From IMG/VR virus record IMGVR_UViG_3300038489_000010: a stretch of DNA of 64,000 nt. One strand, written 5' to 3'. This document shows, one piece after another, positions 837 to 64,000 of the stretch (position 1 is its first letter; every line of letters starts with the position of its first letter). This DNA is from an uncultured virus (IMG/VR IMGVR_UViG_3300038489_000010). Its lineage: Duplodnaviria > Heunggongvirae > Uroviricota > Caudoviricetes. Under the pieces are notes generated by a model, which saw only the letters and a list, made by a program, of their open reading frames with translations, did not search any database and was not told the origin of the DNA. Made by a program: the position numbers and the translations under genes.

Positions 837-837
837 T

Positions 838-2850
838 ATGATAGTAGGAGGAGATAGAGCGATAGAGATGCCTGTTAAGGATCTCTATAATACTTAGTTA
901 ATGTTAGCATCTATTAATGCTGCTAAAGATATATACGACTATGGGTAGAAGCGCATGGATGACTTCTAGAAGACGTATGGAGACTTCTATAGTCCAATAG
1001 CTAAAGATGTTGATTATTGGTATAATAATACAACCAAACCTGTTAAAGACGCAATAGATTACCTCTATGCTAATGGTATAGACCCAACAAGATCTGCAGA
1101 AGGTAGATCTATGATATAGAGAGTTATTAGAAATGCTCCAGCAGGAGAGCTTGCAAAAGCAAGATAGAGTGCAGAGGCGGCTAAAACATATTAGAAGAAT
1201 ATGGCTATACTTCAAGCTGCAGGAAAATACAACCCTGCATACGAAGATTTTAGATTAAAAGGACGTAATTTATAGAATTGGGATACATCTGTTGATGGTG
1301 CATGGACAGAACTTAGTCCTGGAGAATATCAAACATTGCATGACTTTATTGATCCTGTACTTGATAACATTCAAGATCATTCTTTAACTCCAGATGAAGC
1401 GAAGGCTATATTTGGAAATGCATATAACCCTAATCATATGTATGAAGGTGTGACAAGAGCAGATGCTGAACGTGCTTTAGCAAACTGGTAGGCCGGTATT
1501 TCTGGTAATTCATTATATGATTTTTATATAGACCAAACAACTAAATAGCTTGATAGACTTGGATTACTTGATGGAAAAACTGATGCTGAAAGAAAAAGAA
1601 TAATAAATAATGCTTTTATAAACAATGCGGTTGATTCAGATATTGAAAGATGGAATAGGCATAAAGATCTCGGAATGACTAAAGAAGCAGAATACGCTCT
1701 TAAAGATAGATATGATCAGGCTGCAGAAACTCGTCAGTATAATAGAGATATTAATAAACTTTATATTAGCGCTGCTCTTGAAAGAGAAAATGAAAAATAT
1801 AAAGCACAGCTTGCTGGAACCGTTGACGCAAACGGTAATGCTGTAGTTTCAACAACAGGTGGAAATATTCCATATGGAGCTGCAGACGAACTTAATCGTA
1901 ACTATACGAATGCAGAAAATGCAGCATATGATAATTATGTAAACGAATACGAAGCTGGAATCAAAACAACTATTAAAGGTTTAAATAATGATTCGTTTAA
2001 GAAACATTATTATCGCATGTTTGAACTTGCAACATCTGGTAGACTTGCACAGGCTAAAAAAGAATAGAGATAGTGGATGAAATCTACAAAAGCTAAAACA
2101 GTATGGCAAAGAGATTTGTTTAACAGAATTGCTAAATTCTCATATGCAAGAACTCCTGGAAATAATTTACTTAAAGATTTCATAAATTCAGGCCCAATGA
2201 GTGTTAACTTTAGAAATCCTGACGGAAGTGTAAGAAACGAATATGACGTATTAAATGATGCTTTAAGTAAATTTAATGCATACAGAAGTGCTGATTTACA
2301 AGATTACGGAAAGGATTTGGCCGGTCTGTCTCCAACAATAGGATCCTCTACAGTATCTGATGATGTTCATTATACTGGACTTGTAGCAGAAGCTACTGGA
2401 AGTACAAATAGAGGACCATCAACAAATGCTATTGCTAGAAGACTTGACAAAGCTTTAAGACACGTATAGATATAGAGAGTAACAAATACAAAATACGGAC
2501 AAGGAGATATAAACGGTCTATATAGAATTAATGGTATGGATAAAGGGTCTGCTTACTTTGGAACAGAAAATGTTGCTATACCTATAACAAATAAAGCAGT
2601 TAATGATGTACTAAAAGATGTTGATGATGACAAATTATATAAAATGGGCATATCAAAACAGCAACTAGGAAAGAATAAAGCTCAATATTATATAATACCA
2701 ATAACAAAAGTTAATTATAACATTGACGCTGTATATAGCAGTGGAAACAGTGCTACAAGAAAGCGTCTTGGTGGAACATCAAACGCATATCCGTCACTTG
2801 GTTATGACCAAAATGCTGGACAAAATACTTTTAATAGTAGAAGACAATAA
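838..2850 (+). CDS. Putative virion cargo/ejection protein, 670 aa, TAG=Gln
   Basis: ATG 838 (MIVGGDRAIEMPVKDLY...); fragments 1675, 2077 and 2536 share its frame; TAA at 2848-2850; lies directly before the RNAP gene as in crAss-like phages. Confidence 0.8.
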
Positions 2851-2862
2851 TAATATATAAAC

Positions 2863-8800: not shown

Positions 8801-11800
8801 ATGATAATAAAGGTTTACTGTTTTGTGATATTAAATACCATGGAAAATCTTATAATAAAATACTAATTACAACAGATATAAAACGTGGTATAAAATCAGA
8901 GGCAGGATTAAAATTGCTTCAACAATATGAAGAACTTAAATCTAGATTACAGCCAGGATAGTATATAATTGCAAATCCAAGTACTATAAGTAGAACAAAG
9001 GGAAGAATAGTAGTACATTACGAAAATGGAAATGTCGTAAAAAGAAGTCTTATGTCTACAGATCTTATTGGATCTGGACAAAATGCTATTTATGATGTAG
9101 AAATGTCTCAAAAATATGGATTAGCTGGATATGTTGATAAAGGTCAGGCTGTAACATGGGGAGAAAGTGATTCTCAGAATATTCCTTTAGATGTATAGAT
9201 GAGACCTGGTGTTGATGCAACACAAGATGGAACATTTATATGGATAAAAGAAATACATCATAACGAAAATAATAAAGACGAAAAAATACCTGTAGCAGTA
9301 TAGAAGAAAAAATTCTCAAAAGCAGATATAGGCTTTATTATCGATCTATTATCAAATCCTGAAAAACGTAATAGTAAATTTATAGATGAAGATGGTAAGG
9401 AAACAAATATAACTTACAGACAATTATTAAATCTATTATTTCCAATTGCAGAATCTACAAAAGATGTTTTGACAGGTAGTGGAAATATGGTAAAAATACA
9501 ACTACTTGGAACAAATAATTCGTCAGATGGTGCTGCATATAGTACTCGTGTTGCTTTAAGAAATAGTACAGATGTTGCTACAAATCAACTTGATCCTAGC
9601 AATGTATTCGATATGTCAAATGAAGATGATAAAAAGCGTTTTGCAAAGCAATTTGAACAATTAACTATACCTGAGTAGCATAGAGTTATGAGCGCAAGAC
9701 TTGGATTAGATGAAGATCCATCGCTTCCATTTAAATCTATAAGAGACTACTTTGTTAAAAAATCAAAAACAGGCGAACCTAAAAAATCGTTGTCGATAAA
9801 ATATAATGGAGATGATACATCTTTACAATTTGATATGTCTGATTTTGCAACTGTTAATGGCGAGTCTGGTATAACTCATCATGGACTTAGCGGATTAGGA
9901 TGGTATGTAAAACATAATATATTTGAGACAGAGTACGATCATATTGGAGCATCAAATGTTACTATTGGAGATCTTGTTATAACAGATGATAAAGATGATA
10001 TTAATAACAATGGAGTTGGTACAGGCACAGTTCCACAAATGCCATCTGATGAAGATATTATAGATGATGGATATGTTGAAGCAGACGTTGATGACATAAA
10101 CGATGATTGGGGTGCACCTAAGATAATACTAATAGAAGACTTAAAGAAAGTAAAGAAACGCGTTACAAAAAGTACTGCTGAAAATCGATTAGAACAATTG
10201 TTTGGTAAATAGTTCTGTAAAGATCATTTGAATGTAGACAATACTATAAAAGAAGTTATTGATGGTATATTTGCTTCAAAAAAAGCTGCACTTGTTGGTA
10301 ATTGTACAGAAGATTGCATTTGGGTTAGTCAGTATGCACCAGATGGAGTTGAATGGCATGAATCTTTACATAGAATACTTGAATTATTAACATCAAAAGA
10401 AGAGCATGACAAGCTATACAAAATAATAGCAAAAAATCATGGTATAACATATGCTGAAGATGATAATACGCAGAAAACTATCGGAGAATTAGCTGCAGAT
10501 GATTATATGGCTTATGCTTCTGGATATTGGGTGCCAAATAACAAACTTCTTAAATATGTTGCTAAAATATTCAACATAGCTAGAGATTATGTTAATGTAT
10601 TTACTAATTGGAATGATAGGGCTATATATAAAATGTACGCAAGAGCTATGCGTGGTAAATACAAAAACACAAAGCCATCTCAAGAAATGCTTGAAAGATT
10701 CCATAGGATATATCCAGACGGTGCTCATTACGAAATACATGGACAAAGTTTTGATAGCATAGTTAATGGAGCAATGTATGACAAACTTAAATAGTCTGTG
10801 TTATATGTTATAACAAGAGGAATGGAAGTTGATCCTACAGGAAGAAACATTAACGAACTTGGTCATAATATAACAAAAGCAACATTTAAAGATGGAATTG
10901 ATAGTTTACTAAATGCTGATCAACCAATTGATATAATAGGTCAAAAAACAGATAGTCCAAGTGCAGGATAGCTTGCTATGCGAGAAATATTTGATAATTT
11001 CGATAGCAACGAAGGTTTAAGAGAAGATATTGCAAATACACTTCAATTAATAGCTACAGACTATAATACTATACAAGAAGAACAAGATAAGGACGATCTT
11101 GACGCAGGAGAAGTTGCAACAGCTGATCCTAGTGATCATACTAGATAGGCATTTGAATTCTCTCCATTTACAAGAACAACATCTAGAGTTAGATTTTTCT
11201 TTGCAACAATACCAGAGCAAACGTGGCAAGAACAAGAGAAGATATACAAAGACAAACGAGATGGAAAGATGCATAGAAAAACAGTTCTCGTTCCTGTTAT
11301 GAAATTAAATGATCTTGGACTACCTTAGTTCGCTCCAGCAGGATATATATTCAATGATATATTATCATTATTGCACGATTGTGATACAGATGCAGAAATA
11401 TTACATGGAGTAGCTGTTGCTGCAAAGTAGAATCCTACATACATGATTCTATATAAGCGTCTTAAAAAGATATATGATGCTGTACAAAATACTGATAATC
11501 CAGATACTGAGGCATTATGGGTTCAACTAAGAACTTAGATACAAAATCATAAATATACATTTGAGCTTGCAAAAGCTACAAACTTAAATTAGCCAGAAAG
11601 TCAGTTTGGAACATATAGTATTCAGATGCAGTCTACTGATACTGATTATAATGCAAAACATTATCCATTACAATGGGGTTCAATGCTGGCAAATGGAGGT
11701 ACTCCACTTATAAAAATAGATGCAACTGGAAAACGTATTATAAATCCAAAAAGTCCTAAATATGCATATCAATTTAAAGCTATACATGATTTGTTTGATA

Positions 11801-14800
11801 GTAGTAAAGATGCTGGAAAATCAGACAACGGTGTAACTATACGTATTGAAGGATTGAAACAATGGCTATAGAATGCAACTAGCGAAAGTAGTATAATATC
11901 ATATTTCCCAATTAAGCAACTAGATAAAGCTAAATTAAGAGAAGGCAAAACTGTTTATAAGACTAAATATCTTACTGATCCTAAAAATCCAGGAATATTA
12001 TAGCTTGTTAAGGATAGAATAGTATAGGCGTTAAACACTGTTGGAATAAATATGAACAGTGCAGAGTTTGAATATATGTTAGTACATAAATACGGTACGT
12101 CTGACTATACTGCTTTGCAAAAGATGGTAAACTCAAAAGATATTAGCGATTCAATGACGTCATTCTTAGACTTCTTAAATTCAGTTGTAACTCAAGAAGG
12201 ATAGCTTAATTTAAGTTCTGATGGTAAGTTCAATATAAATGGAAAACATATAGCAATAGATCAAATATATACTAAGTTTGCATTTACAAAAGAACTAGCT
12301 AATTGGAAATATCAGTATAGGCATGCTCATGATTAGTTAATGGTACTTGCTACTAATAATAATAAATATTATCTAATATCGCAAAATAACTATTTAACAG
12401 ATGTTGCTAGAGATTTAAATAAACGTGGCGAAGAATATCAGAGATTAACATCAGGAAATGATGTATATACATATAAAGAAGATTCTGTTCCAATAGATGA
12501 AAACGGAAATTAGATAGGAATTGCTGATTACGAAGGATCGTACGTTCTTCATGAAATGAGGAAGGATGACCAATCTGGTAAACATAGGCAGATTGGTTTT
12601 ATAAATATAGCAGGATTTAAAACTGATAAGTTTGGAGACGAAGGAGAAGATTACTTCTAGATGCAAAGAGTTGAAGATGTTATCATGAAAATAGCACTTC
12701 TGCAAAATGGTGATATTATATCTCCTACAAGGTCAGATAAAAAATCATGGTCAGTTTTAAGAGGTATAAAATTACCTGGATTTGATTATACGCAAAGCGT
12801 AGATGGGCAAGGTAATATTGTTGCAAATCCTACATTTAATAGTCTTGATGTTAAATTACTACTTCAAGATGTTGCAACATCTAGACCAATGCTTTAGTAG
12901 AATGACGACATTCTTGAAACATTCTTAAGATATGCATATGCAGAATATGATTCTATTAAAACCGCAGATAAACAGCTTGACTATTTTGAAGCAAACGGTA
13001 TTGATAAAAAGTATTCTGTAGACAACTATTTTAAAAAAGAACAAGGTGCTAGATTTGCTTAGCTTTTAGGTATATATGACGATGATGGTAACTTTATAAG
13101 TTTTAATAACAACAAACATAGCAGAAAAGAAGATATAAAAATAGCTGAAGATTACTTCTTTGAGCCAAAAGTATTTGATAAAAATGGTAATGCCATTGCT
13201 ATTAGGTTCGATAATGAAGATGATAAACGCAGGTACCAGAAAACTCTTATAGCAAGAAACCTGATGGCTGTATGCGATAAAGAGTTGAAGAATTTGGAAG
13301 AACTTGGGCTTATAAAGAAGTTAGATACTAATGACATTGATTATTTCTCTTATGAAAACGTAGGTCTTGACGCAAAACAAATACAATCTATATACAAATC
13401 TATTCCAGTACCAGAAAAAGATGATGCAACTAAATCTAGAAGACGTAGATCATTAGCATTGTGCTTATATGTAAATGATATAAGTAATAAATCATTAATG
13501 TCTGGAATTGAATTTGAGAAACTATTTGCAGGTAATCCTTCTTTCTATAAGTGGAAATATGATGATGATGGTAATCTCGTTGATAGAACTGTAGACGAAC
13601 TTAAACGTGCAGGAGGAGAAGGTTCTACAGGCGTAAACAACTATATTGAACTTAAAAACGTTCCTAAAAAATATGTTAAAAATGGAATGTTCACTGGTAA
13701 ATATGTTTGTGCAGAAATAGATAACGAAGAAATAAAATCTCCACAGTATGATATGTTAAAAGAAACTATGGAAACTAGTATGATTCGTCAATCTGTAATT
13801 AATAAATTAACTGATAATGAAATTAATTAGTTTGAAAAATCTGCAGAATATAAATATATGTCAAAAGAATAGGCATACAACGAAGAGCAACAGATTAGAG
13901 ATGATATTTCTAATAATATTGATAATATAAATGATATTAACGAAATATCATTTATATTATCTGATGATGAGCTTAATCTTGCCAAAGAAAGAGCAAAACA
14001 AGCATCAGATTCTTATATAGAAGGTATTGATGTTGCTGATGGAGCTGCATATATTACAGACGATATGTGCGAGATGCTTCTTAGAGAAATCGGAGTATAC
14101 AGTAATGATATACAAGAAGCATTTAGAATACTTAGAAGTAAATCTACGGATAATATTCTAAAGAAAGCGTCTGCTTATCAAAAAGTAGTTACAACTGTTA
14201 TTGGAACTTAGAAATATACAGCATTTGGACGACGAATTGATCCTAATACTGGTTTATTGACTGTTTATTATAATAAATATGCGTTATTCCCATTGTTTGA
14301 ATGTATGGCTACTGGTAAAATGTCTAACATATATCATGCAATGAAAAATCAAGGCGTTGATATGTGTATGATTAAGTCTGCTGTAAAAGTTGGATCTCAA
14401 GGAGCATAGAAGATAGATTGGAATAACTATAAACAAACAGATGATAACTCAGATACAAGACCAGAATTTGCAACGTCGTTTAAGTTCAATACATATGAAC
14501 AAGAGTTTAAGTACTTAAGGAAGCAGTTGAATACAGATCCAACTGAAGAAAAGTATATGAATATGGGTACATAGATGACGAAGGTAGTATTTTCAAATCT
14601 TGTTCCAGGTCGTGTATATAAAATGAGAGACGGATCTGTTAAAACAGGGCGTCTAATACTAGATTAGATAATGGGTGCAATGAATTCTTTATCTAATAAT
14701 GGAGTAAAAAAAATAGACAAGTCGTTCTATAGCATAACAAAAGATAAAGATGGAAACATCATAGCACATACTGCAGATCCTAATAAATTTGTAAGAGAAA

Positions 14801-17800
14801 TTAAGTAGCTTTTAAGTGGAGATGATCCAAATAGAAACTTAATAGAGTCATTACAAACAAGAAAAGTTGGAGACCATTATGAGTTGACATTACAACCTGA
14901 TGCAGTTCAAAGTTCAGCATGGCTTGAAAGTAAACTTATATCTCGTATAAATAAAGCTGTAATTGATACAGAAGCACCTGGTGCAGCATTTATTTAGAGA
15001 TCTATATGGGGAATGGAAGGACAGTCTATGTATGAATCTAAAAATGGAGGTATAATAAGCGATTCTAACATTCCAAATACAATAAATGGAGGACATGCAT
15101 TATAGATGGTTAATGAAGAAGGTTCTATGGATTGTGTTTTATCTATAGATTTCTTTATAAAACTATTTAAAGACCCAAAAACTGGACGTTCGTTCAACGA
15201 ATATGAAGCAAAAGATAAAGATGGTCATATAATATATGATTATACTCTTGATAAAAACGGGAATAAAATACCTGTATATGAAAAAGACGAATCTGGAGTT
15301 TATAAAAAAGATGAGTCTGGAAATAAAATATAGAAGAAAGACAAAAATGGTAATCTAGTGTATCGTAGGCACAAAAGAATACTCAAAATGTCTTTTGATG
15401 ATGCAAGAAGATGGCTTATTAATCAAGGAATAATAGGCGGTCCAAAGTATGACGAAAACGGAAAAGCAATTCCTGGTACTGGAGCTAAAGCAAATATTGT
15501 AGCATATCGTATTCCTACTTAGGCGTAGGCCTCTATACATGCATTAAGATGCGTTGATGTATTACCTGTAGTAAATGATACAATAATGCTTCCTGCAGAA
15601 TTTACAAAGATTACTGGATCTGATTTCGATATAGACAAACTGTTTTTGTCAGCTTTAAACTATGAAATAAAAGACAAGAAGGCAACAACTGATGTATAGG
15701 ATGAAAATCATCGTTTATAGAATGATATTCTAACTGGATATTTAGCTCTATTACTTGATAAAGATTCAGAAACAGGATAGCCACGTAGTATGAATATACT
15801 ACATAGATCTATCGATAATGATACAAAGCTTGCTAAAGATGTATTAAAATATCTAGAAGAAGGTCGTAAAGATAGCGTTGAGGAGCCTTATGATTTCTAT
15901 TCTCTACATAAGCAGACTACCGCAAAAGATGATTATATAACTGGTAAAATAGGTATTGGTCCATTTGCTCTTAATAATAATAATCAAATATTAACAATAT
16001 TATATAATGTAAAGTTTAACAGAAGTAAAAACGGATTAATGTCAATATTAAATCTTGATAGGTTAGATAGAACTATAAGTCTAGATGGAACAAACGTATT
16101 ATCTTGGCTATCTGCTATGATTAACGCACATGTTGATATTGCCAAAGACCCATGGATTTCAAGACTTAATGTTTGTCCATTTACATATAATATAGTAAAC
16201 CTGTTATTTAGAACAGGTTTTGGATCAAACACATTGTATTTTGTTAATCAACCTATAATGAAAGTGTTAGCAAAAGCTTATATGCAAGCTGGTGCTACAT
16301 ATATGTAGGAAGGTGGTTCTAAGTATAAACGTCAATAGGACGCTATCGAGAACGTACAAAAGCAATTATTTGATGATAATCTTGTTATATATTCATATAA
16401 TACTATACCTAACGAAGAAACTGGAGAATAGCATAAAGTTGATATAACATTTAAAGATGCGCTTAAAATTATTAATACTCCAAAAGACGATAGAAAGCTC
16501 ATAATAAATAAAAAGATAAAAGAGCTATTTGATTCTAATGTTGTAAAACAAGATGCAAAAGCTTATAATTAGTTATCTAACGAAGAAAAGGATAAATATT
16601 TTATAGATAAAGATAATGTTGTAAATCAAGCATTAATGTATCTTGCTTATAAATAGTTTGATAAATATGCTGCTGCGTTGTCAAATCTTGTTAAATATTG
16701 TAAGATTGATACAAAAAAATAGGGTAAAAGTATTGCTGAACAATATATATACAAGAAGGGATATGATGATCTGTTTAGTAAAGATGGAGAATCTGGTAAA
16801 TTATTCGATCAATATAGTTTATCAAAACTAAATAATAATTCATATATTGGAGTAAAGACTAAGAATGCACTTAATGCAACTAATTCTATACTTGCTCCAT
16901 ATTTTATATCAGCAACACCTGCATTTAAGAATACACTTGATATATTGTTAAATATGACAGGACATAGTGGTACTTAGATTAGTACAAAAACTGTTAAAGC
17001 AATGTCTTAGGCGTTAAATGCAGCAGTTAAATCAGAATATTTTAATATGTCTGCTGATGCTATTAAATAGGCAGAAGGTAATCCAGATTATCTGCATGAT
17101 CTTGTTAATACTAGTGCAGAAAACGTAGATTATACATATGACGAAAATGCTGGAGAAATAACTATTAATAATCATATACATAATCTTCGTTCATACATCG
17201 GTGGTAGAATATAGCTTAAATACAAAGGATTAGATGGCAAATAGTATTCTGTTGTTGCTATTATAACGTCTGTAACAGGTAAAAATAAAGCAACAATTGA
17301 ATATAATGGTCAAAAACCAATTGGATTACCTAATGGTTCTGCAATATTATATGATGGTGCTAACACTATATATGATAGACTTGCTAGATTACAAGTATAT
17401 GTAAATTCTCATAATGGTTTAGCAAGCTTACAAAGAAATTAGTTGTTACAAATGCTTGTTCCTGGAGCAGAATTTCAGTATAAAAAACCAGCAGATAATT
17501 AGATTGGTGAAGCCGCTGATACTTATGAACATGCAAAATTTGTTAAATTATAGAATTTTGTTGAAGATGGAGGAATAAATTCTAACTATATAATTGATGC
17601 GTGGGATGAATTATTGCATTATACAAACTAGGATGAAGCTTTGTAGAATACTATACGAACATTTGCTAGAGACTTAGTTTATTATGCATTTATAACATCT
17701 GGTGATAGTAATGGATTTACAAAAATGTTTAAGTATGTTCCAGCATCATGGAGAAAAGAATCTCCTATTGACGGTGTAGAAAGCTATTCAGATTTTATAA

Positions 17801-19137
17801 AATCAAAGCTTAATGATTATGTAAAAGCACCAGCACAAGATCCTAATTGGATTAAAAAATCTAATAGCGATGTTATTAAGGCATCTGTAATGAGTGATCT
17901 TGATCTTAATAATGTTATACTTAATAATTGGTATGATAATCAATTTATACCAGTATATAGCGAAACAGAAAAGACTGAGAATGGATCTTTACCTAACTTT
18001 ATAAAATCATATCCAAAAATAAATGGAGAAGAAGCTAATTTCCCATCTATTATTGGTGCTGTTAGATATGTTGACGGAAAATGGAAAGAAACTATAAATC
18101 CGTAGAATGCTCCTAGATTTATAAAGATAAGAAGGCACAGAAAGGCTTATAATACGCAGAGATTATATACAATTTATAAAATACATGATATTGCCAAAAC
18201 TAAAGACGGAGTATCTTATCCGGTTTATGTTAAAGTAAATCCTAAAGGAAATAAATTCTCTGGAGGATTTATGATAACAGAATATGGAAGAGATGATACC
18301 GCTACTGCAAGAGATGGAAATGAAATGTCTGTAGACGAAAGCATTCTTGATTAGTGGTATAAAGTTAATGACTTCATGTAGAAACTTCCTATTTATTATC
18401 AGAATGCAAATCAACAGTATATCAATATTATGGGAGACCTTAATAGACAATATGCAGCTAATAATCCAGGAATGAACGTTGACAAGGAATGGGGATTAAC
18501 ATCTAAGACCGGAAATAAAACAGATACACTTTAGAATACTTATGAAAATATTATACAAGTATATAATGGTAAGTGGTCTAGAGAATCTGTTGCACAAGAT
18601 CAAGATTCATTATATATATTTACAGATAATACTGATAGAACATCTGGTGGTACGGCTACAGAAAAAGAATCATGGTATACTAAAAAATATGGAAAATCAG
18701 AATATGGTAGTTTAAACAATCCAACAACAGCCGTTATTAGAGGACTTGAAAACGCTGCGCCAATAAGTACAATGAAGTATTTTTATAGAAATCATAATGG
18801 CATGAATATTGATGGAGCAAGATGGAACGATTCTGATTTTAATGAATTCAAGAAAGTTATTGACGATGAAATAGAGTAGATTAAGAAGTTATGGAATACT
18901 GGTAAATATTCTAGAATTTATATACCTTCTGGCGATGGATTTTTTAACGCTAAAATATCTAAAATAACAGAATAGAGAACTCCTAAATTATATGAATATT
19001 TAAAGACAAAACTTTCTGAACTTAGAGATCTTAAATAGATTACAGATAGTTCAACTAAAGAAGAAATGAATAAATTAGACGACTCTAAGTTTGATGATGA
19101 TTATATGAACTTTTGTAAAGGAATAAATAAAGATTAA
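2863..19137 (+). CDS. Giant virion-packaged DNA-dependent RNA polymerase polyprotein (~5424 aa), TAG=Gln
   Basis: All long + fragments from 3868 to 17725 share the frame of ATG 2863; TAA at 19135-19137. Motifs: GSDFDIDKLF (DFDID 15622-15636), YRIPT(Q)A(Q)AS with TAG at 15520 and 15526, zincin HESLH 10357-10371, PD-(D/E)xK GETD..DIK 7663-7722. Confidence 0.9.
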
Positions 19138-19142
19138 GCGAT

Positions 19143-22100
19143 ATGAAAATATGTCCAAATTTAAGTAACCCACAAGTAGCTGAATAGTGGGAAGAATTAG
19201 TTGAAAATCTTGATGGAAGTGTCAAGGCGGCATACTAGGTATGGTCGCTTAATAAAGGAAATATGATAGATAAGGCTCCTAATGGGGAGCCTTCTATCCT
19301 ATTTCATACATTATTATCTATATATAATGGAGATAGAAAAAATGCTATATAGGCAAAAGCTAAATTATATACAAAAGAATTTATAAATTGGTTTGGAGAC
19401 TGGACTGGAGAATATGAGGATGAAAAAGGAGAAAATCCTTATACTGAACATTCTGCTGCTGTTGATGAAAATGGAGAACCAAAAATATTATATCATACAG
19501 TAGGAGATAAATATGATGCTAATTTTAGTATATTTAATACTCATATCGAAGGTAAATTAACGTAGATTTATACTTCTGATAATAAATATTTATCTGAATC
19601 ATATTCTGAAAAATAGCAAAGTTATAAAACATATGATGATAATAGAACAAAACCGTTTTATGCAAACATACGTAAACCATTAATTATTAATGGTAATGGT
19701 GCTAGATGGAATCAACTAAGTTTTATAACAACTGATACAAGCAATATAACAGATGAAGATAAAAAATATGCAAAAGACTATTTTGATTATTTTGAAAAAG
19801 TTTTAAAACAATTTCTAAATGAAAATAAAGATGTGTATGATGAAGCAATGCGTAATGCTGATTATGCACTTATGAATGCTGCTGCAAATGGAACAGAAGA
19901 ACCAGATATATTTGATTATCTTGACGATGCTTCATAGGGTTTTATTTTAAAAATAGTTAGTGATAAATATCCAAAACTTCCAAGCAAATATGCAATAAAT
20001 AAACATCTTAATTACAGGTCACTAAAAGAAAAAGATTTGCCTGGCGTAAACAAAATGATAGTAAAAAGCAATCGTCATGCGCTTAGTACTAGAGATATAG
20101 AACATCTTGTTAATAATAACGATTTATATGATGGAATTATATTTAATGATATAATTGATATTGGACCTTATTCATGGAGTGATCAATTATCAAATGTATA
20201 TACAGTAAGACAATCTTCGCAGCTTAAATCTATATATAATAATGGTTAGTTTTCTGACGATTAGAATTTTTATTATAATATATCTCCTCGTTCGTTAATA
20301 CAAAGTATTCAAAAAAAATGGAGAAATAATAATGATAAAAAAGGAATGACTAAATAGTAGGCTGAAAATCTTCAAAGTGCTTTATTCTATTCATTTGGTA
20401 TATTCCCATCTGTTGAAGAAACAAACACAAAAGGAGTATATAATTTAAATTCTTTTAATTATGATTTAGCTACAAATAAAGATTTACATGATCCTAAAAA
20501 TCTAGAAAGAGATCTGTCTAGTTGGAGCGACGAAGCAATAATTTCTTTTGCAAAATCATTAAACGCATCTTTTGGTAATATGTTTACTGTACATATACTA
20601 ACAGAAAATGAATGGAAAAATAAAAAGTTTTCAGACATAAGTAACGGTGTAATAGATGGAACCGATGTCTATCTGCGTAAAAATAGAATGAATGGTCAAA
20701 TAGCAGCAGAAGAGATGCTGCATACATTTGTGTATAATGTTGCTATTAAAAATCCAGAATTGTTTAAATAGTTAGCACAAAGCGCAAGAGAAAACTTTTA
20801 GAAATTAGCATTTGAAATAGACAGCCTTTATACTCAACATAAAGATGAAGAATTAGTTACACAAGCTTTATCTAGATGCTTTACTTTAAAATATATACAA
20901 AATGACGGAAAGAAAAATAAGTTTATATCATGGCTTAAAAAAGTTGGGCAATTGGTATTTAAATTATTTAAGTCAGTACCAGTATTTAATAATATTATAA
21001 ATAAATATAATATTACTGTTGATAATATGACTGATAAAATGTCATTTAATGTATTAACAAAGCTATTAATGTCTGAAGATGTTTAGTTTATTGGTTTAAC
21101 AACAATTCCTTCAACTAGAAATAATATTAGTCCAAAAAATACAAAACCATTTGGAGAAGAAATATATAGTACATTAGCTGATGCTATTTCTAAAAGAGAT
21201 CAGTATATAGATTAGATAAAAGCACAATATAAGAAAGATACTGGTAAAGATATGTAGGCCAGTTAGATAAATAAAGCAAAATCTTCTTATAACAAGAACC
21301 AGCTTTAGCAATCTCTAGACTAGTATCAACAGATTATAGCTTCTGCTCATAAACTATATATGAACGATGGAATGTGGATGTCAACAAGACATGGAAAAGA
21401 TGATACAATATTAGAATTCTTTGTAAATTCTTTAAATCCACAAACATTCGATAGATATAGAACTAGATAGTCTGAAAAATACAAAGCTTTTGCGCCAATA
21501 CAAGACCCTTCTAGTGCAGTTAATATGATTCGACAAGCATTTGAAGATGGAGACGTATAGACTTTAGACAAAATTATGGCTAGAGACTATGTAAGAATGA
21601 TGTGGGATAGCGATCTAATTCAAATTGGACTAGATATGCTTAATTCAGAATAGAAAGGAACTTCTCAAGAACTTGAAACTAGATTAGTTGATACTATTAC
21701 TGATGAAAAACTAGAAAGTCGTATACATAATAAAAAGATAATTGAATATGTTAAAACATTCTGGCAAAAATTAAATAATCTTGTTAAATCTTTATTTGGA
21801 AAGCATGTTTATACAAAAGAATAGCAATCTGAAATATTAACAGCTATTCAATCATCAATGTTATGGAACAGAGAGCTTGAAAAATCAGAAGGTTTGTAGC
21901 CAATATACAAACGTGCTGAAGCTGATTATGCATCTACATTATCACAAACTCCATATGACGAACGGGCTATATCTACAATAATAGAAGGAACAAAAACAAG
22001 ACTAAGAGCAGCTAATGCCAAGAAGAATAAAAACTAGAGTTTAATAAATAAACTTAAGTCTTAGATAGAAAATAATGAGCGTATAAATCCTAAAGATGTA

Positions 22101-25100
22101 AAACAAGAATACAATCTTATTGTTAAAACTATTGAAAATGCAAATAAAGATATAAATAGTACGTTGCTATATCTTAGTAACCTTGATTATAATAATGTTG
22201 GTTCTTGGAACGCAGAACAATTAAACTCTATTCAACGTGATGTTATTGGTTTTTATAGCGGTATAATGGATAATATTTAGGCTTTATTTCCTTAGAATGA
22301 AGAAACAGCATTATCTTTATATAATAAGTATATGCTAGCTAAAGACCCGAATGGAATAGACGTACAAGCCGCTTTAAACGAAGTATAGTCAACTATAAAT
22401 AGAGTAAGAGAATTGTATAGAGATGAGGTTTTACATAGATTTGCAAGATTTTATATAGACTCATATATAGACTCTTAGGATTAGCTTTAGGATAAGGAAA
22501 AATTAAAAGCACGAGCAGATAGATTTTTATCTCAAGATGCTTAGTACGGAAATCTTGCGTCTGGAGAAATAATAGTAGGTATGGCGTCTAGATCAAAAAG
22601 TCCAGTTGTACGTATAATTGATTCGATAATTCAAGATACAGAAGCAGAAAAAGGACGTATTGTTCTAGCAACAGGTAAAAAACTTGTTGATGCTTATAAT
22701 AAAATAAGACCAACAGGCTCATAGATTTCTCCAACAAACTATTAGAAGAAATTTATGGCTTTAGACAGAGATGGAGTGCCAACTGGTTATCTTATAAATG
22801 ATCTTAATAGAGGATAGTTCTATATAGATAGAGATGAGTTTATTTCAAAGTTAAACGATAAGTACTCTAACAAGGATAAATATGGAGACGCAGCTATAGA
22901 TATTGATGATTAGGGTAATATAACATGGAACGACGAAGATGAAACGGCTGACAAATCTGTTTATAATCAATATAATGACGAATTAGACGAATGGCTTGAT
23001 AAGCATTGTATAAGACGTTATAAGCTTGAATATTACAAAAAACGTAGAAGATACTTATCTAGATATGCATTGTAGTTATAGAGGCAAATACAGCGTGATA
23101 TAGCTATTCTTACACAAAAAGCTACTGTTGAAGCTGAAGAAGATGGAAAGAAATTTAACTATATAGATACATCAAAACTTACATATCAAGAATTAAAACG
23201 TTTAAAAAATCTTCGTAAACAAAAAAGAGATCTTGGTTCTCATTATATAATAACAAGTGACAAAACTGGATTGTTACATGTTGAAGAAAAGGTTGGAGAT
23301 GCTTTAAAAGTTGCTGACGAAATATCAAGATGGAATAATTTTTTGCGTGACCACGTTAAATATAAACCAGATTGGAAAACGTTTAATAAAGTTAAAGAAG
23401 ATGTACTTGGTAAAGATGTCGATATGAGATTGATACGGTTACATACAGCCGCATTTATCGATGAAAACAAATAGTACACAGACGAATAGTTGAATGCTGC
23501 AAAACAAGCATAGAAAGAATACAATGAGTTATATGATAAATGGAAGAAGTTTATGGATGATAACTCTTGTTATTAGATAACTCCTCAATTTTGGGATTTA
23601 TTAAAGCGTTCTGTTGGGCACTTTAACGACGAAAAACTTTCTATGTTACAAAAACGTCATACAGAACTTGTTAGAGCTCTTAAAGATAAAGACGATTTAT
23701 GTGCTCCTAATCTATATACTAAAGCTGGTCTTGGAATAAATACTGACAGATCAATGTGGACTGAGCTTAAACGTATAGAATAGGCTATTGCTGATAGAAA
23801 AGCAGAGTTACTAAAAGAAGGTTAGCATATTGATGGTACAAAAGAAGTAAAATTCGGAGATATTGCTAACATGGCTAATGCTATAGTTTCTGATTAGGAC
23901 TAGCAGGCTTTCTTGCCATATTTATATAACTAGTGGGCAAATGCAGCGTCTAATAACACAGATTTATGGGGAACATTCAACGATTTGTTCACATATAATG
24001 GAATTGGTAAGAATGGATAGAGATAGGTTTAGTATCTAAATGTATTTAAATATCTTGAACCAAGAGGTTTTAAAGTATTAGATGGTAATGGTAATTAGAT
24101 ACAAGCTATAGAACGTGTTCCTATAAACGAATATCAATCTCTTGATGAATCATCAGATTTTGTTAATAATGAATTATATTCAAAAACACGTGCTGATTAT
24201 AAAGGTTAGCAATTTGACAATAATGATGGTCATGCAATGTAGCCATTATATAGTTTATATAAAGATAAAAGATTTGACAAACTAAACGATAAAGAAAAAC
24301 AATTCTTAGATTTATTACGTTCAACATTAAATGAAGCTAATTCTAAGATACCGCAAAGAGCGCTTTCTAGAGATGGATTACTTCCGTAGATTACTGGATA
24401 GAAGATGTCTTTGCTTGGAAGAAGTTTCACAAATCATAAATTCTGGAGTACTATAGGATATTGTATACAAGACATAGCTGGAAAAACTTATGCAGAATCT
24501 GATAAAGATGCAACTACAAATATAGATTTGCCAAGAAGACCAGATGGCTCTATAGTTAATAACATACCAATAAGATATGTAAATAGACTTAATAATAGAG
24601 CATTGTTATCAACAGATGTTCTTGGATCTATAATTGAGTATTATAACATGGCAACAAACTTTGAGTAGAAATCTAAGAATATAGACTAGCTGGAACTTGT
24701 TCAACAAGCGTTATAGGCTCAAGCATCTAAGTATAATGTTAAGCCACAATAGGCTGATAAGGTTAAAAATATGTTAACATAGGCTTATTATGGTAAAACA
24801 ACATCATTTAGTTTTAATGATGATGAAACTATAACAACTGGAAAGGCTAGAACTATATAGTTTGCAAAAACGTTTAGAAAGTTAGCAACATGGTCAATGC
24901 TTGCAGCTAATTTTACTACAATACAAGTTGGTTATTTTGACTCGTTAATGTCTGCTATTGCTGACGCGTTTGGAGGAAAATATATTACTGGATCAGATTT
25001 TAGATATGGATTTATTCATTCTATGATACATTTTGTTAAAATGATTTCAAATATAGGAAATCCAATTATTAACGATAAGCTGTCAGCGGCAATGCAATAT

Positions 25101-26489
25101 AACTAGTTATCTAAATCTAATTCTGAAATATTCGGGTAGTTAGATTAGTCTAAAATAAGTCGCATATTAGATTAGTATTTTACTATGGGAGGTTATACGT
25201 TAACTGATTATATGATAAATTCATCAGTTCTTATGTCTTTTTATCATGCGTGTAGACTTATACAACTTCCAAATGGGAAACAAGAGTTTTTAAACAAATC
25301 AGAAGCAATAAATAGATTAACAAAACTTGGTTATACTTATAAAGAAGCTGAAAATACATGGAAGAAATCAAAAACTAATCTATGGGATGCATATGAGTTA
25401 AAAGATGGTTTATTTTAGGTAAAAGATTAGTATAAAAATATAGTAACAAAAAGAGTTGAAAACCAAATGTAGAAAAAACTACATGATAGGACTGCAGTAT
25501 ATAATGGAGTTGTTCCAATGTCTGAAAAGGCAAAGCTTCAATAGAATATATTTGCTTCATATATATCTTTAATGCGTGGTTTCTTTATTAATACTTATTG
25601 GGATAGATTTAATACAGGTGTTGACTATGCAAATATAAATGACGATGAAGATGTTAACTGGAAATCTGAATATAAACGAGACGATATGGGTTTTGAAGAT
25701 TTAAGAACTGGAGAATTTCAAGGAGCTTTATTTAAGGATTTCTGTAGAGGACTTTCAAAAGGATTGCATAACATGAAATTCGCTTTACATCTTGCGCAAT
25801 CTAAAAATAAACTAACACCTAATTAGCTGTATGCTGTAAAAAGATGCGGTGCTGAAATTACAATGATACTTGGTTTAACAGCATCATTACTTGGAGTTGT
25901 ACTTCCATGGTGTTTTTCTGGAGATGAAGATGATGATAAAGACCCTGTATGGACTTTAAATATATTTGATCCAGAAGGAGAAGATAGACCACTTCTTGAT
26001 GTTGATTGGAGTAGAGCAAATAATTCATTAAAGAACTGGATGAGATGGAAGTTAATGCTGTTAAATACACGTCTTATAAACGAACGTTTAACACCTTGGC
26101 TACCGCAAACAGCAATGGATTTAATTAACTCTCCAACTACAGCATTGTCTTATTACGATAATCTATCTATGAGCGCTGATCTTGTAAAAGATATTGTAAC
26201 GGGTGACATCAACACAGAAATAAAATCTGGTGGATATAAAGGAATGTCAAAAGGAACAAAAGATGTCCTTGCAACATTTTCTCATATACCTATTAATAAT
26301 ATTGTTAAAGATTTTCATGTTGGAGGCATTAAATCTACATTTAATTATTATAGAAATCAATCTGTACTTCCGTTCTTTATTCCTTCTATGCGAGAATGGA
26401 AAGATGATTAGGAAGATTCCACAGAAAATAGTAATGATTAGAGCGGATTTGATTCTGATTTAAATCTTGATATAAATTCTGGATTTTAA
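19143..26489 (+). CDS. Large virion cargo/polyvalent protein (~2448 aa) with an N-terminal ADP-ribosyltransferase-like domain, TAG=Gln
   Basis: ATG 19143 (MKICPNLSNPQVAEQW...APNGEPSILF); fragments 20037-25863 are in frame; TAA at 26487-26489; motifs FINWFGDW..VDENGEPKILYH..YDGII..QLKS. Confidence 0.85.
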
Positions 26490-47013: not shown

Positions 47014-47019
47014 ACCAGC

Positions 47020-47154: not shown

Positions 47155-47295
47155 ATATTAAAAAGAGCAGCTACTTTCACAAGCAACTACTCTAAAACTC
47201 AATAGGTCAGTTTTCGTGAACAAACTATTGATAAAATTGATTATAAACAAAATAATAATCTAATTAAAACTATAAACTACAATACCATTAGCTAG

Positions 47296-47347
47296 TGGAC
47301 GATATGGGAGTCGAACCCATGTCCCACTGAATTATTTCATACGCGCT
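47296..47347 (-). ncRNA. ssrA: Permuted (two-piece) tmRNA, acceptor piece
   Basis: TTCAGTG-GGAC-ATGGG-TTCGACT-CCCAT-ATCGTCC-A; pairs with GGGCGAT giving G3.U70, and with CATTGAA (P2); 5' end approximate. Confidence 0.85.
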
Positions 47348-52493: not shown

Positions 52494-52650
52494 AAATGTA
52501 AATCACGTCAGAATTGCAATGTTAGAATTTGTTCATATTATTACTTTTTCCAAAATAAAGCTCGCTTGCAAATTATCCTGGTACGTTTTATACAGCTATT
52601 CTCACGAACCACTGTATAGTTGGCTTATTGAAAGTGATTTGCTTAATTTG

Positions 52651-52721
52651 TTGTCTCATAAGGATTCGAACCTTAACTGACAGAACCAAAAACTGTAGTG
52701 CTACCATTACACCATAAGACA
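52651..52721 (-). tRNA. tRNA-Gln(UUG)
   Basis: TGTCTTA-TGGTGTAATGGTAGCAC..TTTTGGT..TTCGAAT..TGAGACA-A cloverleaf. Confidence 0.92.
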
Positions 52722-59449: not shown

Positions 59450-59524
59450 AGAAGGTACTAGGCGGATCCTAGCGGCGTAAACTTCATGAATACAATGAAA
59501 GTGGTTTGACTCCACTACCTTCTA
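59450..59524 (+). ncRNA. Aberrant tRNA-like RNA
   Basis: AGAAGGT/ACCTTCT acceptor, CTAGG/CCTAG, TTCAT-GAATACA-ATGAA, AGTGG-TTTGACT-CCACT. Confidence 0.55.
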
Positions 59525-59634
59525 CGTTTGCCTTGATCAAGCACGTCCGTGTACGAAAACCACGTGGTCATAGGTTATCACTCCTACGAAAAGTGAATTT
59601 CGCCCCATGGTGTAATGGTAGCACAGGAGGCTCT

Positions 59635-60629
59635 TAAAGTAGTTCGATGATAAATAGAATGAATAATATGACAAATAAAATATATGAATGTTCAGATGAA
59701 CAATTTGAACAGTTAATTAAAGGTTCGACAAATATATCTGAAGTTTTATTCAAACTAGGATATTCGGTAAAAGGAAATTCTTGGGGTTTTTCACAAGTCA
59801 GAAGACGAATGGACGACCTTGGATTAACAATGAAAGATTTTAAAGGCAAGTCTGCAATATCTGAAGGAAATAATATAAAAAAAGTTACTGCAGAAGATTT
59901 ATTTAAACAAAACTGCAAACATACTAGAAACGTGTTGCGTAGATTTATAATAAATCACCATTTATTGCCATATAAATGCGCAATATGCGGATGCTCTGAG
60001 TGGAATGGAAAAACTCTAAGCCTAGAGTTGGATCATATAAATGGAATAAATAACGACAATCGTCTTGAAAATCTTAGATTTCTTTGTCCTAATTGTCATA
60101 GCCAGACAACAACATATGGTAGTAGAAATCAGCAGCTTAACGAATCGAAATATGAAATATCAGAAGATTTAAGAAAACTGGTTGAATCTACATATGAGAA
60201 AGAAAAAAGCGTTAAACGAACATCAGCTATACTTGGTATACGAAGATGTGTTGTGACGAAAATAGTTAACGAGTCTGGACAAAAACATTCTAATCGGCGA
60301 TATGTTATACGATACAATACTGATGGTACTGAAGCAGAAAGATATGGATGTTTAGCTGATGCTGCAAGGTGGCTTATAAATAATAATCTTGTCAAAACAT
60401 CTAAAATAGAAACTGCTAAAAGAACAATTAGATATAATGTAAATCGTAATAACACCTTTGCTGGGTTCAAATGGACTATATTGGATGGTTCTGGGATAAT
60501 AAATAATCCAGAATTAGAATCTTCTCTAATTGACTCGGAAAACAATGTTGACGAGGCGCAAGCGAAAGCAGCGTGACAGACTAAACGAGAAGACCGGTCT
60601 TAGGACTGGATGCAATAGTCGATCAAATG
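59635..60629 (+). mobile_element. Group I intron (995 nt) inside the suppressor tRNA anticodon
   Basis: Follows U and ends in G; P7 GACUA/UAGUC, P3 UUCUC/GAGAA, P8 CCGGUC/GACUGG. Confidence 0.88.
59647..60576 (+). CDS. Intron-encoded HNH homing endonuclease with NUMOD1-like C-terminal domain
   Basis: CAICG..LELDHINGINNDNRLENLRFLCPNCH; VIRYNTDG..YGCLADAARWL; no TAG. Confidence 0.92.
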   Translation: MINRMNNMTNKIYECSDEQFEQLIKGSTNISEVLFKLGYSVKGNSWGFSQVRRRMDDLGLTMKDFKGKSAISEGNNIKKVTAEDLFKQNCKHTRNVLRRFIINHHLLPYKCAICGCSEWNGKTLSLELDHINGINNDNRLENLRFLCPNCHSQTTTYGSRNQQLNESKYEISEDLRKLVESTYEKEKSVKRTSAILGIRRCVVTKIVNESGQKHSNRRYVIRYNTDGTEAERYGCLADAARWLINNNLVKTSKIETAKRTIRYNVNRNNTFAGFKWTILDGSGIINNPELESSLIDSENNVDEAQAKAA

Positions 60630-60688
60630 AACCCTCTTAGTGTGGGTTCGAATCCTACTGGGGAGACCAATACAAATCTAAAATAAAT

Positions 60689-61228: not shown

Positions 61229-61250
61229 TGCATGACTTAGGTTCATGTTT

Positions 61251-61280
61251 AAGAGGACACTCACAAGGTGTCCTCTTTTT
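61251..61280 (+). terminator. Intrinsic terminator
   Basis: AAGAGGACAC-TCACAAG-GTGTCCTCTT-TTT. Confidence 0.8.
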
Positions 61281-61307
61281 CTATTTATACTAATTAAAAT
61301 AATAAAT

Positions 61308-62051
61308 ATGTTAAAGAAAAAGATACTCGGTGCCAAGGTGTTAGATACAAATGGATATGTATAGGCAACGAGGCTTATAACACCAACAAATTTGGAAAGT
61401 GAAGCTGCTGAAATAAAACGTTTGTTTAACCAAGGTTCGTCTAAACCGTCACACTAGCTAGGTGATATATACAACGCAAATATGGTTGATATAGTAGCCA
61501 AAGCTGTATCTCAGGGCGATGCACAGCTTAATGATCAGGTTAATGCAGAGACAGCAGCTAGAAAAGAAGAGGATAATAAACTTAGCGAACGTATTAATTA
61601 GGAAATTAAGGATCGTAAATAGGCAATTGTTGATCTTGTTAATGGCGCACCAGAAGCTTTTGATACGTTAAAAGAAATAAGCGATTATATAGCCGAAGAT
61701 AAAGACTTTGCTGCAGCAATTGTTAATAGTTTAACAAAAGAAACAAATAGGGCAAAAAGTGCAGAAGAAGCTATTAGATCTCTAATAGAATCAACAGAAT
61801 TATCTATATTGCAAAAGGCAATAATTGGAATGCAGTCATCTTCTTATGATAAGAATACAAATACGTTAACTTAGACATTTGTTAGAGGTGATGGAACCAC
61901 TCTTGAATATACAATAAATTTAGGAGACGTTGTAGACTCCAATGATATTGAAAATTCAGATTCAACAACTATGCAATATAATAATGGAAAGATTTCTACA
62001 TCTGTAAATACTATAGGAGTAGATGATGTTGATACACTGTTTAATAATTAA
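61308..62051 (+). CDS. Fibre-like structural protein (247 aa), TAG=Gln
   Basis: LVNGAPEAFDTLKEISDYI fibre motif; frame open except for TAG. Confidence 0.75.
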
Positions 62052-62060
62052 TGATGTATT

Positions 62061-62339
62061 ATGGCATATTTAGATTACAAAGGTTTAACAGAACTTGTTT
62101 CAAAGATTAAAAGTATTAACTCTAATTTCGCAGCTTCTCTTAACAAAGAAATATCTGATAGGACATCTGCTATTAGTAATATTAATACAACTTTAGGAAA
62201 ACAGACTGTTGTAACGACTGACGCAACTGATACTGAAAGTGCAAAAGTTGCTTTTACTTATGCAACTGGAAACACAACGACTAAGACAGTCACTATAAAT
62301 GCTATCTCTAATTCTGAGATAGACTCTTTGTTTAACTAA
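62061..62339 (+). CDS. Small structural/fibre-associated protein
   Basis: MAYLDYKGL..ISNSEIDSLF pattern. Confidence 0.7.
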   Translation: MAYLDYKGLTELVSKIKSINSNFAASLNKEISDRTSAISNINTTLGKQTVVTTDATDTESAKVAFTYATGNTTTKTVTINAISNSEIDSLFN

Positions 62340-62364
62340 TTTATTAACTTTTTAAATTTAATAA

Positions 62365-63096
62365 ATGGACGAAAAAATTTATACAAGCGATTCTGCTTCA
62401 AATTTTAGTAATGGCGCTATGATGGGTGCTATGCTTGGTAAAGATAATGATAATGCGTTGGCTCTTGCTAATGGTGGTTTAAACAACTGGATGAACAATC
62501 CATTCGCTTACCTTATGTTTATGATGATTCCTGCTATTTGGGGCGGAAATGGATTTAATGGCAACAACAATGCTGTTAATGCTCAACTGCAGAGTTTGCA
62601 AACTTAGATCTCTGATAATCACAACAATGACCTGACAATGCAGGCTATTAATGGTAGTCATGCTGCTATTACTCAGCTTGCACAGACTTTGAATGTTGGT
62701 TTCGATCAGGTTCAGGGTGCAGTTAACCAGCTTGGTCAGCTGATGTAGGGTGGTATGAATAATGTTAATACATCTATTCTATCACAAGGTTATCAAAACC
62801 AACTTAATAATTGTAATCAGACTAATACAATCTTGATGCAGTCTCAGGCTCTTCAGAACACAATTCAGAATGAAGTCACTGCGCTTGGTTATCAGTCTGA
62901 GCGAAATAGTAGTGCTATACAGTAGGCCTCTACTGCTAACACTCAGAGAATTATTGACACGCTTAACAATCATTGGAATCTGGAGTAGCAAACAACTATT
63001 CAACAGCTCAGGGATGAGATCGGTCGTCTTAACCAGACAAACACTCTTATTTCTAGTCTGAAAGGTACTGCTACAGCAACTTCAACGGCTGCTTAA
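62365..63096 (+). CDS. Hypothetical N/Q/G-rich coiled-coil protein (243 aa), TAG=Gln
   Basis: Frame continues through TAGs to TAA at 63094-63096. Confidence 0.75.
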
Positions 63097-63172
63097 GCAT
63101 TATTAATTCATAATATAACCTCCTCTCGTTTATTTGACGAGAGGTTGTGTTATATTATCTAATATATATAAT

Positions 63173-64000
63173 ATGGATATTTTAGATAATACAGGAGTTG
63201 CTAGAGTTGCTAATATAGCTAATACAAGGGCTGATGCATTAACTTCTGGCATGGCTAATATTGTTACAGCGTTAGATAATATAACATCAACTTCTGCTGA
63301 TTTATAGAAAGAGATTTCTGACAGAAAAGCTGCTGATACAACAATATAGAACAGTATAAACGAAACTCTTACTAATACAAACAAACTTATTGAAAGCGCA
63401 AATTCTGCTATTGTTGATGCAAACGGCGCTATCGCATAGGCAAAAAATGTTAATGCAGTACTCGACAATGACATATTAACTGTTACAGACAGAGATAACA
63501 ATTCTAAGAGTATTTAGCTTCTTAGTAATTATGAGAATGTAACTGTAAATTTGTTTACAACAAAATCTAATATTGATATTGTTGGAACACAACTTAATGT
63601 TTATATTAATAATGATACTACTACTCCTATATAGTATAATGCTGATTCAAATGGTGTTGTAACATTTAGAATTGCTAAAGGCAATTATTATAAGATTGTA
63701 TTCCCAGATAAGGCAGGATGTGCACATATAGCACCAATTGGATATACCGCAAGTATTGATAAAAGGACAATTACAGTTGAATATAAAGATACTGATTCTG
63801 GAATAGAAGAAATCCACGTTCTTACAAGGCTGTTTTCAACAGCAAGTACAAATGTCGCTATAGCAGCAGGATATTAGTGTACATTAACAATGGATGGCGC
63901 TACAACAACATTTAAGACTAATGAAAATGGAGAGTATGTATTCAAAGCCGAATATGGAAAAGAACTAACTATTACTGCTAGTGATTAGAATGATAAGAAA
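63173..64000 (+). CDS. Partial putative tail/structural protein, TAG=Gln
   Basis: ATG 63173 MDILDNTGVARVAN...; frame open to the window end except for TAG. Confidence 0.7.

Follow-up and report, generated by a model that had tools for sequence, protein, structure and literature searches.

How does a phage translate late genes that carry in-frame TAG throughout when standard finders report no transfer RNA (tRNA) that would read this codon? The locus that raises the question lies in IMG/VR record IMGVR_UViG_3300038489_000010, an uncultured Caudoviricetes virus, of which a stretch of 64,000 nucleotides (nt) was analysed (the window). TAG (amber) appears in frame 220 times in the 9637 late codons of the window versus 0 times in the 6123 early codons of its minus-strand early block. 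Recoded crAss-like phage genomes without a detectable suppressor tRNA have been reported before, with undetected non-canonical suppressors proposed (PMC7886860, available part of the text), and a Suoliviridae case of recoding without a detectable suppressor is named in the accessible portion of a recent preprint (bioRxiv 10.64898/2026.08.21.746148). For the window, we consider it probable (roughly 85%) that positions 59601 to 60669 hold a working amber-suppressor tRNA(CUA) gene of a TAG-recoded crAss-like (Suoliviridae-like) gut phage, interrupted by a mobile group I intron.

The split tRNA gene and its intron-less alleles

Features are on the plus strand unless stated otherwise. The first tRNA exon (59601..59634) supplies the 5' strand of the acceptor stem, the D arm, the 5' strand of the anticodon stem and loop positions C32, U33, C34 and U35; the second (60630..60669) supplies A36, A37 and C38, the 3' strand of the anticodon stem, the variable region, the T arm, the 3' strand of the acceptor stem, the discriminator A and CCA. 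The 995 nt between them (59635..60629) follow U59634, begin with U, end with G60629 and separate anticodon positions 35 and 36, borders that are fixed by the intron-less alleles described below. When the exons are joined in a script, ARAGORN returns a 74-nt tRNA with anticodon cta, in which the cloverleaf has a 7-nt anticodon loop (CUCUAAC) with U33, anticodon CUA, a purine at 37, an encoded CCA, and one G.A mismatch in the acceptor stem (pair 2-71). A first-pass annotation, made from the sequence alone, had described two halves of an amber suppressor around such an insert, and this arrangement holds, as does its further statement that the CUA anticodon is absent until the exons are ligated, the insert dividing U35 from A36.

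The same annotation expected standard finders to overlook the gene, and over the whole window both default ARAGORN and the Rfam tRNA model are silent on it: the former reports only a tRNA-Glu, a tRNA-Gln(UUG) and a call resembling transfer-messenger RNA (tmRNA), the latter just the two tRNAs. The gene is also unannotated in the GenBank relative PV686213. ARAGORN in intron mode (-i) does make a call at this place, tRNA-Lys (ctt) i(38,995), and calls other tRNA types in relatives. Taken at face value it would put the insert at the canonical position 37/38 and leave a tRNA-Lys(CUU) on removal. That mode tries position 37/38 alone, however, and the implied insert would come after an A and have C as its last base, unlike a group I intron; the uninterrupted alleles moreover read CTCTAAC, not CTCTTAA, and we give this alternative next to no credence.

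Uninterrupted alleles were found by searching IMG/VR with a pattern built from the D arm and the ligated loop, which occurs at 104 places, 100 of them an uninterrupted tRNA(cta). With the intron removed in silico and the flanks aligned to intron-less loci, identity across the junction was 97% over 225 nt (L050 against L186/L164), 93% over 323 nt (L029 against L237), 86% over 243 nt (L001 against L253), 82% over 306 nt (L004 against L199) and, for the window itself, 80% over 178 nt (against L199). The sequence CTCTAAC of these uninterrupted genes leaves U35/A36 as the only insertion point and excludes the CUU reading. The RefSeq genome cr272_1 has an intact tRNA(cta), annotated as tRNA-Gln, directly upstream of a dUTPase gene, which is the gene order of the window, and cr131_1 also has an intact tRNA(cta) annotated as tRNA-Gln. 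Presence and absence at an orthologous site, combined with an endonuclease frame intact in 15 of 15 loci, form the signature of a homing intron, and the mobility proposed at first pass, for which intron-less alleles in related phages were to be sought, gains its support from finding them at the same locus. Interrupted genes are not confined to the window: the tRNA-type intron motif was located 38 times in IMG/VR, on 37 contigs, many with a length of 95-105 kb.

Two side observations concern the uninterrupted genes. In cr131_1 (locus L268, NC_055902.1, positions 5-882) the gene immediately after the tRNA(cta) stands on its own and carries a homing-endonuclease annotation; it may be related to the intron endonuclease while lying outside an intron. 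Five loci (L169, L177, L183, L211, L242) have an uninterrupted tRNA(cta) with the same D arm and a long variable arm, a hint that these genes are suppressors of another tRNA class.

Among the interrupted genes, ARAGORN calls the joined exons a tRNA in the window and in 12 of 15 related loci, and the loop reads CUCU|AA[C/A] in 15 of 15. The anticodon stems vary among the 15 loci and still pair across the intron through compensatory changes; exon 2 was located by a script that demands five pairs, and the count of stem pairing is partly built in. T arms are unusual in the second exons of L004, L005, L006 and L050 and in L037, L083 and L003 (for example CCGGGTTCGA[C/T]TCGATGG), and some family members have T loops without the usual TTCGA; the type just quoted is common in uninterrupted alleles too.

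The group I core and the endonuclease frame

Judged from comparative sequence analysis, the insert is a real group I intron. A P1-P8 model was read from the sequence and tested by covariation on a 14-locus alignment (41 pairs in 8 helices, 574 cells), for which relatives came from GenBank PV686213 (Bohxovirus, Suoliviridae), MT835539, four IMG/VR loci reached through the HNH protein, and others reached through the core pattern. The intron opens with a 5' leader (59635..59667) in which GUAGU (59639-59643) is the 5' strand of a P1 extension that pairs with 60475-79. The P1 3' strand (60475..60485) consists of ACUAU, belonging to this extension, and then the internal guide sequence UUGGA. In the P1 core, UCU at 59632-34 pairs with GGA at 60483-85, placing a G60483.U59634 wobble at the splice site, followed by C-G and U-A. 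P2 (60491-97 with 60506-11, G60493 bulged) has 6 pairs, 2 of them changed on both sides, and P3 (60520-26 with 60587-93) has 7, of which 5 changed on both sides, each helix being 100% paired across the alignment. P4 (60534-37 with 60552-55, placed from the covariation alignment) encloses a minimal P5 of 3 base pairs (bp; 60541-43 with 60547-49). The P6 hairpin (60556-63 with 60568-74), with an internal loop and a GAAA loop, has 6 pairs, 100% paired and 1 changed on both sides; the P8 hairpin (60594-99 with 60604-09, loop UUAG) has 6 pairs, 2 changed on both sides. P7 (60577-83 with 60616-21) has a bulged A60578 and forms a pseudoknot with P3. The terminal (omega) guanosine is 60629, and a possible 2-bp P10 joins AA of exon 2 (60630-31) to UU at 60481-82.

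Across the 14 loci, the 41 model pairs are 99.0% paired, versus 33.7-45.5% when their 3' partners are slid by 1-3 columns, and 16 of the 41 are changed on both sides, versus 0-5 in the slid controls; none of 500 shuffles reached the observed pairing or covariation score. The second pair of P7, G60579-C60620, is invariant in 14 of 14 loci, with the bulged A present; from the Tetrahymena ribozyme we take it to be the guanosine-binding pair. The splice-site U.G occurs in 13 of 14 aligned rows, the remaining one (L034) being misaligned there. In each of the 13 loci compared, the P1-extension duplex (up to 15 bp, with a sequence that differs among loci) is stronger than those formed by shuffled leaders (z from -1.3 to -4.2). 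G occupies the omega position in 13 of 15 loci and, among 29 distinct 3' tails read by eye, in 25, and 12 of 13 loci have a 2-bp P10 (UU with AA). A P9 hairpin is present in loci of the L002/L034 type and in copies of the MT835539 type. The core motif occurs once in the window and in none of 100 shuffles, and its family is widespread in phage contigs: the P7 context is kept in 68 of 119 pattern hits, of which 68 13 are tRNA-type by eye. The group I core reported at first pass is thus upheld by P1-P8 covariation on 14 loci, though a search with the Rfam model, of the Infernal kind then suggested, was negative (see below).

Two other pairings were considered for the core. UUAGA (J2/3, 60513-17) as guide sequence would pair A with the splice-site U, and was passed over for UUGGA, which gives U.G, precedes P2 and continues into the P1 extension. 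A hairpin AAUUAGA/UCUAAUU, seen by eye, was also set aside, its 3' strand being the covarying strand of P3.

The first-pass assignment of an HNH endonuclease to the insert is confirmed by matches of the frame to PHROG 10822 'HNH endonuclease' (E 3.4e-42) and to Pfam HNH PF01844 (21.9 bits, cut-off 21.4); a PDB sequence search with the protein found no solved relative. The frame (59668..60576, 302 amino acids (aa), open from an upstream ATG at 59647) lies in the loop of P1 and ends with a TGA stop at the P6/P7 border. Only 33 nt of the insert precede it and 53 nt follow it, so any ribozyme core must overlap it, and its last ~90 nt do overlap the guide sequence and P2-P6. The frame is free of in-frame stops, TAG included, in 15 of 15 loci, the count of 0 in-frame TAG in the window's frame comparing with ~7 predicted from the late-gene rate. 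In 13 of 15 loci it crosses the guide sequence and P2-P6 and stops at P7; the frames of the other 2 reach no further than the guide sequence and leave the core free. In MT835539 the frame stops early and is followed by ~190 nt of non-coding core, which marks the position of the ribozyme. Endonuclease frames that overlap intron cores are a known general feature (PMC3984707, figure 2 legend, in the available part of that review).

TAG usage and proposed maturation of the suppressor

In the late-gene block (826..26489), three frames are open only if TAG is sense; their lengths are 674, 5427 and 2452 codons, and their in-frame TAG counts 13, 114 and 72. At the other end of the window, the order is split tRNA, dUTPase, a terminator-like hairpin, and the first TAG-containing genes 3' of the tRNA and dUTPase (61236..64000, 16 in-frame TAG); the split tRNA does, as noted at first pass, adjoin the recoded genes, standing just upstream of them. 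The hairpin (61251-61277) is strong, with 11 pairs and then a T run, right after dUTPase. A promoter scan showed no enrichment over shuffles. Among the two-codon boxes, every codon of the form NNG (AAG, GAG, CAG) is used two- to three-fold less often in late genes that contain TAG than in early genes.

An intact CUA tRNA elsewhere would make the split gene dispensable, a point raised at first pass, and none was found: ARAGORN and Rfam detect no other CUA tRNA in the 64-kb window, no CUA anticodon occurs among 23 Rfam tRNA hits in five complete or near-complete relatives (15 typed by ARAGORN, 8 by eye), and ARAGORN finds no other CUA tRNA in two whole relatives. Given 220 late TAG codons and no other CUA tRNA found, the altered code probably depends on splicing.

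The fold suggests how maturation could proceed. The 5' leader would pair with the stretch before the guide sequence, ~840 nt downstream, forming a long P1 that closes a loop holding the HNH gene, and the compact ~140-nt core, P2-P8 with its P3/P7 pseudoknot, would fold next. A guanosine would attack after U59634, itself paired with G60483, and the freed 3' OH of exon 1 would then attack after G60629, the exons being kept in place by the 2-bp P10 and by an anticodon stem at distances of 4 and 3 nt from the two splice sites. Ligation would give the loop CUCUAAC, and the spliced tRNA would read the 220 in-frame late TAG codons of the window. The HNH protein presumably cuts uninterrupted suppressor-tRNA alleles of co-infecting relatives, by which the intron would spread. 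On this account the code would depend on splicing incidentally, a selfish element having settled in a conserved target that the phage cannot do without, and no designed timer would be involved.

Contigs of four public RNA runs (X15, X16, X18, X19) include none that joins 59634 to 60630, and contigs are unable to test splicing. A joint in X15 of 59626 to 60637, with 15 other letters between, belongs to a different tRNA with a CCA anticodon and is no splice product. In X16, one contig stops precisely at 60629 and nothing covers exon 2; contigs cannot show RNA ends, and we draw nothing from it.

The suppressor is probably of glutamine type, as its similarity to another tRNA of the window suggests. 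Positions 7-24 (18 consecutive bases) are identical between it and the tRNA-Gln(UUG) at 52650..52721 on the minus strand, its probable paralogue, in agreement with the D-region match reported at first pass; over their whole length the two tRNAs agree at 46 of 71 positions, on a par with the best comparators. When TAG-as-X late proteins were aligned by tblastn to five Suoliviridae loci, Q was the top residue opposite TAG (7 of 35), and against two whole relatives the residues were Q 13, K 13 and E 11 of 118, all at <40% identity. Codon composition is non-discriminating for the TAG amino acid, all NNG codons dropping in late genes. In two crAss-like phages TAG was shown by proteomics to be Gln (PMC9523058, accessible portion).

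Several points weigh against a working, intron-split suppressor. The ligated exons are known from in-script joining alone; ARAGORN does not call the joined exons a tRNA in 3 of 15 loci and draws the T stem weakly in 4 further loci. The three P1 core pairs never vary, and so carry conservation only and no covariation evidence, and the P1-extension duplex of the window is the weakest of 13 (z -1.28), its best-energy form omitting UCU/GGA. The Rfam model Intron_gpI (RF00028) has no match in the window at its gathering threshold or even at E<=10, nor at E<=0.01 in the other tRNA-type loci L002, L034, L006 and L051. At E<=0.01 it matched only L038 and L055 of 12 related loci, and by coordinate conversion the best L038 match maps upstream of the shared core; since the model matches only these 2 of 12 family loci, its silence in the window says little, and covariation was relied on instead. 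The intron ends in A in one lineage, namely in L001, L029 and three further tails (L285, L294, L301), amounting to 4 of 29 distinct tails plus L001 (tail GGTTTAA[C/T]A; L001 site 2491-2500). In that lineage the exons are intact and covarying and P7 is unchanged; the A-ending copies, if they splice, would be unusual group I introns, a natural example of ligation without a terminal G. With genomes of ~95-101 kb in relatives, the 64-kb window leaves room for a second CUA tRNA in the part of the genome beyond it. The amino acid at TAG is not settled by alignments or codon composition, Gln resting on the D-arm identity and orthologue annotation. Lastly, with its P9 hairpin missing and its P5 reduced to 3 bp, the window copy may not splice unaided.

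This last point raises the alternative of assisted splicing, in which a reduced core could not act unaided and would be compensated by the tRNA body, by a host factor or by the HNH protein as a maturase. Besides the absent P9 hairpin, the 3-bp P5 and the 2-bp P10 of the window copy, the anticodon stem closely flanks both splice sites, and a title listed in the available part of PMC3984707 has the Anabaena pre-tRNA intron needing anticodon-stem exon pairing. Against this stands the conservation of every core helix and of the presumed guanosine-binding pair. Small tRNA introns of bacteria self-splice, and we regard a strict need for assistance as unlikely, though not far-fetched.

If instead the gene were dead, insertion of the endonuclease would have destroyed the tRNA, and suppression would come from the host, the rest of the genome or another mechanism. 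The partial coverage of the genome by the window, the A-ending lineage and the odd T arms of some family members could all be read in this way. Yet the exon stems keep pairing across the intron through compensatory changes, the ribozyme core is under structural selection, no other CUA tRNA was found in five relatives, and the odd T arm is also found in many uninterrupted alleles; a dead gene is in our estimate very improbable.

Maturation of a working suppressor might also act as a timer. The first-pass annotation suggested that splicing gates the switch of code. In such a scheme, delayed or regulated splicing would make the suppressor available only late and so time the translation of TAG-containing genes, possibly through ribosomes that run along the HNH frame into P2-P6 and unfold the ribozyme. 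The anticodon does not exist before ligation, a terminator-like hairpin separates the gene from the recoded block just downstream, translation and folding should compete in the 13 of 15 loci whose HNH frame extends over the core as far as P7, and the trigger of the code switch is called poorly understood in the accessible part of PMC10879173. Near-identical phages, however, carry an uninterrupted tRNA at the same locus, so the switch works without the intron; the frame/core overlap is a known general feature (PMC3984707, available part) and is missing in 2 of 15 loci; and no regulatory element was found. We therefore do not retain this suggestion and consider gating improbable. Its more specific form, in which suppressor maturation is coupled to HNH translation, with ribosomes keeping the guide sequence and P2-P6 unfolded until translation falls and splicing follows, is slightly less probable still; if true, the precursor would first be an mRNA, and a ribozyme-based delay would act on the TAG-sense switch.

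Related systems and neighbouring RNA features

A suppressor gene with an intron in its anticodon has partial counterparts. As in bacterial and plastid tRNA introns, the anticodon stem adjoins both splice sites. It differs from those introns in its phage host, in sitting in a stop-codon suppressor that would underpin an alternative code, in its insertion at 35/36, in the 302-aa HNH gene in the P1 loop and, in the window copy, in having no P9. Position after a U, a G end and a compact core are features common to it and to the anticodon-loop group I introns of bacterial and plastid tRNA-Leu(UAA), tRNA-fMet and Azoarcus tRNA-Ile(CAU) (PMC3984707, accessible text).

The cyanobacterial tRNA-fMet intron lies in another tRNA and has a cellular host, and its endonuclease presumably belongs to a family other than that of the HNH frame. 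It resembles the present intron in encoding a homing endonuclease aimed at the anticodon region (Bonocora and Shub 2001, a title listed in the available part of PMC3984707). Group I introns of phage protein genes (same review, same limits), and the IMG/VR core loci, likewise combine a phage host, a mobile endonuclease gene and frame/core overlap, the IMG/VR loci having the conserved P3-P8 core family in common with the split-tRNA intron (the 68 of 119 pattern hits above); unlike it, the phage protein-gene introns lie within protein genes and have P9 extensions. The uninterrupted tRNA(CUA) genes of TAG-recoded crAss-like phages, such as those of cr272_1 and cr131_1, are the same tRNA in the same place upstream of dUTPase, with the same presumed TAG-reading role, but are intron-free and detected by standard finders. 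Theta ribozymes, which resemble that of hepatitis delta virus and lie by phage suppressor tRNAs, also tie a ribozyme to suppressor maturation in recoded gut phages; they are small, self-cleaving and at the 3' trailer, as opposed to a splicing intron inside the anticodon (PMC10879173, available part, in which the word intron is absent).

According to the accessible part of the 2014 review, every phage intron known by that date lay in a protein-coding gene, even though phages have many tRNA genes (PMC3984707). No tRNA intron is mentioned in the available portions of the Borges preprint, the Zeta crAss paper or the theta-ribozyme paper, and full-text literature searches, outside which lay most subscription journals and preprint supplements, returned no description of an intron-split phage suppressor tRNA. 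Within the literature searched, the gene would be the first phage tRNA intron and would extend group I introns to phage tRNA genes. An intron-split suppressor would give a concrete answer to the missing suppressors of at least 37 IMG/VR contigs and GenBank PV686213, and probably also explains the unannotated MT835539. It would further mean that an alternative genetic code can rest on an RNA-catalysed splicing step, and would offer a natural homing system with a suppressor tRNA as its target; annotation pipelines for recoded phages should check the surroundings of HNH genes for halves of a tRNA.

Other RNA features were seen in the window and its relatives. On the minus strand at 46957-47385, adjoining the tRNA-Glu, ARAGORN predicts a tmRNA of the permuted, two-piece form, tag GDTNNIVDYTHVA*, and the Rfam model tmRNA_permuted scores this region below threshold (35.6 bits versus a gathering value of 47, E 1.5e-5 on 651 nt); relative G002 has a similar ARAGORN call with tag GDYNIVDYTCVA*. 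The region may encode a phage tmRNA-like RNA. Just upstream of the split tRNA, positions 59450-59523 could form a cloverleaf-like fold with a 7-bp acceptor-like stem, a T-like arm, a 10-nt spacer and an anticodon-like arm with loop GAAUACA; its z-score is only -1.6, and it has no Rfam match at E<=1. Finally, tRNA-like genes that Rfam scores as tRNA, with anticodon loops of 4, 6, 8, 10 or 17 nt, occur in relatives G001, G002, G004 and W01 (L129, L132, L135, L139, L141, L145 at 31-102, and L146).

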